Origin: Escherichia coli
GTDB lineage: Bacteria > Pseudomonadota > Gammaproteobacteria > Enterobacterales > Enterobacteriaceae
NCBI RefSeq assembly: GCF_003334405.1
Contig: NZ_QOWM01000001.1
DNA length: 64,000 nucleotides
Reading direction: 5' to 3' (one strand)
A model generated the notes under the pieces. The model ran no database searches and was not told the DNA's origin. It saw only the letters and a program-made list of their open reading frames with translations. A program made the translations under genes and the position numbers. Position 1 is the first letter of the stretch, and the number at the start of each line of letters is the position of its first letter. Below are positions 57,445 to 57,773 of the stretch, in pieces.

Positions 57445-57602
57445 GAATATTTTTTGGTAAGCATCAAACATGCGCGTTCTGGTTGTGCTTAGCCGGAACC
57501 TGTGCGAGCACGATGCCGTTACGTGAAAGGCATCGTGCTATGAAGGGAGATTCTATCGATGTGGTCAATGGAAGACGGTGACCAGGGATAGGGCTTATGC
57601 AT

Positions 57603-57629
57603 AAAAAATAAGCCCGTGTAAGGGAGATT
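57603..57629. other. candidate phage P2 attachment-site core (locI-type attB), apparently unoccupied
   Basis: AAAAAATAAGCCCGTGTAAGGGAGATT matches the 27-nt P2 att core as I remember it; embedded in a short inverted repeat; no ogr-like or tail gene remnants in the flanking 330 bp. Confidence 0.5.
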
Positions 57630-57773
57630 ACACAGGCTAAGGAGGTGGTTCCTGGTACAGCTAGCATTTTATGGGTTATGTTTTTCAGCGAAACGGATGA
57701 TAACCTTAATAAATGCAGCTGTATGTGATCGGTTTCTAAGAATTTTCCATCCGGGAAAAATAATCGAAATTAA

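Follow-up and report, generated by a model that had tools for sequence, protein, structure and literature searches.

A vacant P2-type attachment site in Escherichia coli coincides with the terminator of cyaR and lies beside the apparent scar of an older P2-like insertion

The genes yegR and yegQ (trhP) are separated by a short spacer in the stretch of Escherichia coli DNA analysed here, which measures 64,000 nt and is referred to below as the window. Gene names are those that RefSeq gives for strain ECONIH5, whose sequence agrees with the window at 100% over positions 57100-58100. The spacer, its contents and the two bordering genes are as follows.

57127-57444, plus strand: yegR, encoding a predicted lipoprotein of 105 aa; 37.7% GC; within the apparent old insertion described below.
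57445-57773: yegR-yegQ spacer, 329 bp from the yegR stop (57444) to the yegQ/trhP stop (57774).
57603-57629, plus strand: P2-type attB core (locI core), vacant; identified by an exact and unique match, by the annotated P2 attP core and by Campbell junctions in other genomes.
57603-57691, minus strand: cyaR (ryeE) small RNA gene; identified by an Rfam match over 57606-57691, by its fold and by a terminator scan.
57697-57739, minus strand: predicted cyaR promoter, with a -10 element TATCAT at 57702-57697 (positions -13 to -8) and a CRP-like site.
57774-59135, minus strand: yegQ/trhP.

The original prediction had treated the spacer as an empty interval, a description that does not hold: the small RNA CyaR is encoded there, and the att core is its terminator. 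The match to the CyaR/RyeE family RF00112 is full-length (model positions 1-85 of 85) and reaches 100.7 bits, well above the gathering score of 47 (E 1.9e-20); the conserved CCACCUCC seed-loop region, the terminator hairpin and the U-tail are all shared with the family. We take the 87-nt RNA to run from 57689 down to 57603, its 5' end being set by the published RNA. The predicted fold contains an 11-bp terminator stem (-19.8 kcal/mol, z -3.0), and a terminator scan matches 57638-57611 plus a T-run. CyaR is a CRP-dependent, Hfq-binding small RNA, and the promoter elements are consistent with CRP dependence: the CRP-like site TTAGAAACCGATCACA (57739-57724) agrees with TGTGA-N6-TCACA at 8 of 10 positions and is centred at about -42.5. 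In a scan for cyaR across Enterobacterales, with one genome per GTDB species and at least 120 loci found, almost every one of the 120 loci listed has yegQ on the upstream side of cyaR. Annotations of the yegR-yegQ spacer should include cyaR.

The P2 core makes up the last 27 nt of CyaR: it takes in the terminal part of the 5' half-stem, the whole 3' half-stem with the loop between them, and the U-tail. This 27-mer, AAAAAATAAGCCCGTGTAAGGGAGATT, has a single occurrence in the window (57603-57629, plus strand, 0 mismatches), and none of 100 dinucleotide shuffles produced a match to it even with up to 3 mismatches allowed. The original prediction had identified it as the P2 att core, and alignment with P2 attP agrees: the window is identical at 27 of 27 positions to bacteriophage P2 AF063097 24356-24382, an interval labelled 'attP' in the P2 record, which also labels 24356-24383 as an Int-binding 'attP core'. 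In a blastn comparison with 50,697 phage records, the identity with P2 reaches 28 nt, window 57602-57629 corresponding at 100% to 24355-24382 of AF063097/NC_001895. On one side of the core, P2 attP carries ogr, the ogr terminator, the Int P-arm site and an IHF site; on the other it carries Cox sites, the P' arm site and int. Judged from sequence, the att core is the intrinsic terminator of CyaR.

Among the cyaR loci listed, the exact P2-core half-stem, ACACGGGC, is confined to E. coli-type CyaR terminators, most other genera having ACGCAGGC or ACGCGGGC in its place. The E. coli CyaR terminator with the P2-type core (57611-57638) contains a U-G wobble at the fifth pair (GCCUGUGU / ACACGGGC); one genome labelled E. 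coli (L034) has ACACAGGC, which pairs perfectly. Phage cores may have overwritten the 3' half-stem of the CyaR terminator.

We take 57603-57629 to be the primary P2 site of E. coli C, locI (attB), whose 27-nt core is shared with attP. The locI and attP core is reportedly the work of Haggard-Ljungquist and colleagues, and the original P2 att papers are said to be those of Yu et al. in 1989 and of Barreiro and Haggard-Ljungquist in 1992. The window and E. coli C locI share the identical 27-nt core, the chromosomal position beside yegQ and cyaR, and the architecture of the lysogen junctions; identity of the flanks with those of the classical site is deduced from their near-invariance across E. 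coli, and no difference is detectable. A P2 attachment site at cyaR is an already known and catalogued feature. In Table 2 of the E. coli W genome paper (PMC3032704), the 'cyaR RNA' entry names Wphi2 (P2) for W, ogr-D' for K-12, P2*B for B and nothing for Crooks; rybB, ssrA and leuX appear there as other RNA-gene insertion sites. As with phages and islands at the 3' ends of tRNA, tmRNA and small RNA genes, attP carries the end of the gene and integration regenerates it; where such a site is used again and again, scars accumulate, nested or in tandem, and their att repeats decay. The cyaR site differs from tRNA sites in that its target is a small RNA terminator rather than a T-arm or acceptor stem, and from the usual RNA-gene sites in that its apparent old scar is fixed species-wide and holds an expressed-looking orphan gene, yegR.

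The window differs from K-12-type genomes at this locus. The latter have 959 bp between yegR and yegQ, occupied by ogrK and a D' pseudogene; read from yegR, the order is a truncated attL core AAAAAAATAAGCCCGTGTA fused to D', then ogrK, the P arm and a full core. The window lacks ogrK and D' and has one intact core with contiguous host flanks. The K-12 remnant (ogrK-yegZ, or D') and the window have in common the core, the orientation with ogr next to cyaR, and host flanks bearing the degenerate core repeat and P-arm relic described below; the K-12 remnant has, unlike the window, an extra 630 bp consisting of the D' fragment, ogrK, the P arm and the second core. The expectation that K-12 carries a P2 remnant (ogrK, yegZ) here and the window does not was thus borne out, as was the account of the interval as about 330 bp long and free of phage ORFs, tblastn with P2 Ogr, Int and D giving no match anywhere in the 64-kb window. 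The word 'unoccupied' is apt as regards the single core and the missing Ogr, Int and D; it is less so as regards the spacer, which holds cyaR, and the yegR-side flank, which has the apparent P-arm relic.

Prophages are found at exactly this core in other genomes. A four-way alignment sets the window (B-O-B') against P2 (P-O-P'), the 720R8 prophage record (B-O-P') and the K-12 type (P-O-B'). In the 720R8 record, window-type flank is followed by the core and then by int-side DNA of P2, in the order yegR, core, int; strain S56 likewise has yegR, window-type flank and core, followed by int, C and cox. The K-12-type junction supplies the other half, with ogr-side DNA of P2, the core, and then window-type flank and cyaR. 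As read from the alignment, the hybrids in S56/720R8 and in K-12 are the exact B-O-P' and P-O-B' junctions of Campbell integration. IMG/VR has at least 120 stretches with an exact copy of the core, and the copies frequently lie close to the two ends of contigs of ~32-36 kb, the arrangement that prophages of P2 size with attL and attR should show. By these comparisons 57603-57629 is a genuine vacant P2 attB (locI), and the prophages in S56 and 720R8 support the proposal that it is a native integration target. The practical use of the site is limited to forecasting the landing point of a P2-like phage in this strain and to the design of junction PCR primers.

On a 9.7-kb contig labelled 'MAG: Collinsella sp.' (JAIJJM010000051.1), the end of an E. 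coli-type cyaR, its core exactly that of P2, is followed by a P arm and by an ogr 100% identical to that of P2; this Collinsella-binned contig is almost certainly a misbinned E. coli/P2 contig.

The vacant state is widespread. A probe of 153 nt across the core (57540-57692) aligns without interruption in 4208 of the 5426 complete E. coli genomes (78%); in the remaining ~22% its alignment breaks at the core. A 1001-nt probe, with short insertions tolerated, is found in 4565 of the 5426. The approximate split is ~350 genomes with short remnants like that of K-12 and ~860 with large insertions. Since so many genomes are uninterrupted, the vacant state is the rule and K-12 belongs to a minority, which makes the site a poor strain marker, contrary to what had been suggested.

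These frequencies bear on two other explanations. The vacancy might have arisen by precise excision of a recent P2-like prophage, leaving a cured lysogen. Precise excision by Int and Cox regenerates exactly B-O-B', and the flanks of occupied and vacant alleles are nearly alike; we nevertheless regard this history as very unlikely, for it has no positive support, vacancy is the majority state across diverse E. coli, and the window contains no homologue of P2 Ogr, Int or D. Still less probable is the view that the 27-mer is only the CyaR terminator, copied from the host by P2, and is not a competent target in this lineage. The core does lie wholly inside CyaR, so that purifying selection on the small RNA alone would conserve it, and similar terminators with 1-3 mismatches are present in many genera without prophages. 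However, P2-like prophages sit at the exact core in genomes with an identical or nearly identical yegR-side flank, the core is interrupted in about a fifth of complete E. coli genomes, as counted above, and the two roles are compatible.

The DNA on the yegR side of the core has a history of its own, outlined by the following features.

56814-57602: apparent insertion of 789 bp in the E. coli lineage, separating the cyaR terminator from the region upstream of yegS, and delimited by contiguity of these two in E69 and E1V33 and by adjacency of cyaR and yegS elsewhere.
56809-56835, plus strand: attL* (AAAAAGTCAGTTCAAGTATGGAGGATT), a direct repeat of the core in degenerate form (18/27), situated precisely on the far boundary of the insertion.
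56841-56864, plus strand: putative P'-side relic (GTTACCACCAGGAGCTTGCAATGG against GTCACCAGTAGGGGCTTTCAACGG in P2), starting 5 nt past attL*, at the same offset from the core as in P2.
57507-57539, plus strand: hairpin AGCACGATGCC-N11-GGCATCGTGCT downstream of yegR, with a perfect 11-bp stem and an 11-nt loop.
57543-57552, plus strand: AAGGGAGATT, which repeats the final 10 nt of the core exactly and stops 3 nt short of the P-arm relic.
57556-57602, plus strand: putative relic of a P2-type P arm, from local alignment with P2; now the yegR-side (B) arm of attB.

The segment 56814-57602 is AT-rich (39.8% GC against 50.1% for the whole window) and contains yegR. Two divergent lineages, 'E. coli' E69 (whose core is exactly that of P2) and Escherichia sp. 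E1V33, have yegS directly after cyaR, and blastn finds window positions 57800-57603 and 56813-55700 contiguous in both. Because cyaR and yegS are contiguous there, 56814-57602 is best seen as an insertion situated precisely where the core ends. Most of the loci listed have a different, unrelated flank that runs on into yegS. Of the 120 cyaR loci listed, 55, with the two Escherichia lineages among them, have yegS starting 73-234 nt after the cyaR terminator; the genera with this adjacency include Klebsiella, Enterobacter, Kosakonia, Atlantibacter, Cedecea, Pectobacterium and Rahnella. The 120 loci listed are without E. fergusonii and most of the cryptic clades, and the age of the insertion is hence not fixed by them.

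The opposite polarity, in which the 789-bp segment is ancestral and was deleted in E69, E1V33 and the other genera, would draw on recombination between attL* and the core, which could remove the segment cleanly, and on the sampling of just two Escherichia lineages without it. We find it hardly credible, since yegS closely follows cyaR in those 55 loci from many genera and a YegR homologue is found in none of the loci listed; the segment is moreover AT-rich and bounded by the core and arm relics, and a deletion of this kind too implies an att-flanked mobile segment.

An insertion at the core end is also what the boundary sequences suggest. Similarity to the core at the level of attL*, 18 of 27 positions, is reached at only 2 of ~128,000 window positions. 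The P' relic gives an in-register ungapped segment score of 12, which 0 of 5000 shuffles reach, in a test chosen after the alignment had been seen; a free local alignment of 56836-57000 with the P' side of P2 scores 18, a value reached by 186 of 1000 shuffles, and is not significant. The P-arm side gives a stronger signal. Local alignment of 57445-57602 with the P2 spacer between ogr and the core scores 38, and 0 of 1000 dinucleotide shuffles reach this value (mean 14.9, sd 2.3, max 28). Within it, 57556-57585 corresponds to the Int P-arm site annotated in P2, TCGATGTGGTCAATGTGTGGACGTGACC (L001, 1439-1468), and the similarity continues to the core with one 16-nt gap. With TCGATGTGGTCAATG, the window matches the beginning of the P2 Int P-arm site letter for letter, and TGTGGTC at 57560-57566 is, by sequence, an intact Int arm-type site; the second arm repeat is degenerate. 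The hairpin at 57507-57539 has a T-run on neither strand, and its position is that of the ogr terminator in P2. By rough estimate, a 10-mer of the core would turn up by chance within ~160 nt with a probability of about 0.005; the copy at 57543-57552 does not fit a simple single-event insertion model and is possibly the residue of an intermediate attL. The attL* and the arm relics are conserved in the K-12-type, S56 and 720R8 alleles.

The segment 56809-57629 has core repeats at both ends (18/27 and 27/27), arm relics in the correct order, attL-P' ... P-attR, and is absent from E69, E1V33 and the outgroups. From this comparison, 56814-57602 looks like the residue of an old, decayed P2-like prophage. 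A recognisable phage gene was found nowhere inside it in protein and blastn searches against phages, and we therefore describe 56809-57629 as an att-flanked scar of P2-like origin and not as a prophage. An independent 3.3-kb insertion is present at the same nucleotide in E. albertii NBRC 107761, where it occupies 0-3370 nt after cyaR. It has a P-arm-like start, a fragment of an IS3-like transposase and a 25/27 direct repeat of the local core, and it rejoins the yegS flank at the equivalent of window position 56813.

Elsewhere, a P-arm motif with an ogr-type terminator comes after cyaR in Citrobacter youngae, Trabulsiella guamensis and a Buttiauxella MAG, and the motif is also found in Enterobacter, indicating, as far as sequence can, P2-like prophages or relics in those genera. 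Such occurrences matter for the direction of the similarity between the B arm and the phage P arm. A P2 ancestor might have captured the host flank by aberrant excision, a process that does move host flank into phages, and similarity alone carries no direction; we give this reversal scarcely any credence, given that the shared stretch is an annotated Int arm-binding site with a phage function (arm repeats TGTGGTC/TGTGGAC), that in several genera P2-like prophages have the P-arm motif after cyaR and their vacant relatives are without it, and that nothing of the kind adjoins cyaR in pristine Escherichia loci.

The original prediction had held that flanking sequence of phage derivation would count against a native target. 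The P-arm homology of 57556-57602 is formally of that kind; the functional attB stands nonetheless because lysogens with exactly this flank exist, and the site would be only second-hand. The fossil within attB is apparently undescribed in the literature searched, and is a modest addition to what is known of the site.

YegR matches nothing above cut-off in NCBIfam, and against phage genomes it matches only ON470606 and AY639599, both of which include host flank; blastn of the 789-bp segment against phages likewise returns nothing beyond these two records. We rejected ON470606 as a sign that the yegR-side flank is of phage origin, the record including host gatR, yegS and yegR, and AY639599 ('Phage TP') as a phage source, that sequence being a K-12-like chromosomal fragment. 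The latter contains yegR' and a yegQ labelled 'putative protease', and records of this sort can make host DNA look phage-derived. YegR also has a strong match to phrog_21109 of PHROGs, a family of unknown function; we discounted it as evidence of phage origin, the family being probably host flank inside predicted prophages, which would make the argument circular. In the literature searched, the sole experimental result on yegR is the lack of a phenotype upon its inactivation in a chemostat study (PMC3708739).

Taken jointly, the reading that this is a vacant P2-type attB formed by the CyaR terminator, with an older P2-like insertion beside it and the K-12 scar nested there later, appears to us highly probable on the comparative evidence. 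P2 Int is a tyrosine recombinase that, with IHF, occupies the core and the arm sites of attP, excision also requiring Cox. The gene cyaR is transcribed towards yegR, and phage attP holds an identical 27-nt copy of its terminator segment. In the mechanism that we propose, Int would pair attP with this core and, by analogy with P2 biology, exchange strands inside the 27-nt identity. In lysogens the prophage is found between cyaR and yegR, with int beside yegR and ogr beside cyaR. As attP carries the same 27 nt, cyaR is intact at attR after integration, as seen in the K-12-type sequence; attR, made of phage P arm, core and host DNA, rebuilds the gene at full length.

The same site appears to have been used before, 56814-57602 being by comparison a decayed earlier P2-like element. 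The attR core of that element would have survived because the core is the CyaR terminator, while its attL would have decayed to 18/27, with short P and P' relics left behind. The preserved attR core would now serve as attB for present-day P2-like phages, and the ogrK-D' remnant of K-12 would be a later scar nested at the same core. So understood, the vacant site is a palimpsest, with an old att-flanked yegR scar and then, in K-12, a second nested one. It would offer a small and clean example of the 3' end of an RNA gene acting as a long-lived landing pad, its core kept by selection on a small RNA terminator, and the old insertion suggests an origin for the orphan gene yegR.

A further step would be to read the B arm as a fossil P arm that makes attB a hybrid able to recruit the arm-binding domain of Int, with yegR as domesticated prophage cargo that became fixed in E. 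coli. We consider this combination rather unlikely; if true, a hybrid attB could help explain the strong preference of P2 for locI over secondary sites.

Two further variations were seen near the site. In CFT073-type alleles (L005, 651-820), an AT-rich insertion of ~170 bp lies right after the yegR stop (window 57444) and the att site is intact; the 1171-bp spacing of the CFT073 type also occurs in several ExPEC-like genomes. Between yegQ and yegP, at window 59238-59832 on the minus strand, lies a pair of genes for a ParD antitoxin and a RelE-ParE toxin, 98 aa each, which are annotated in the identical stretch of ECONIH5 and are missing in K-12-type genomes, where the gap between yegQ and yegP is ~146 bp; the pair is a strain-variable toxin-antitoxin insertion.
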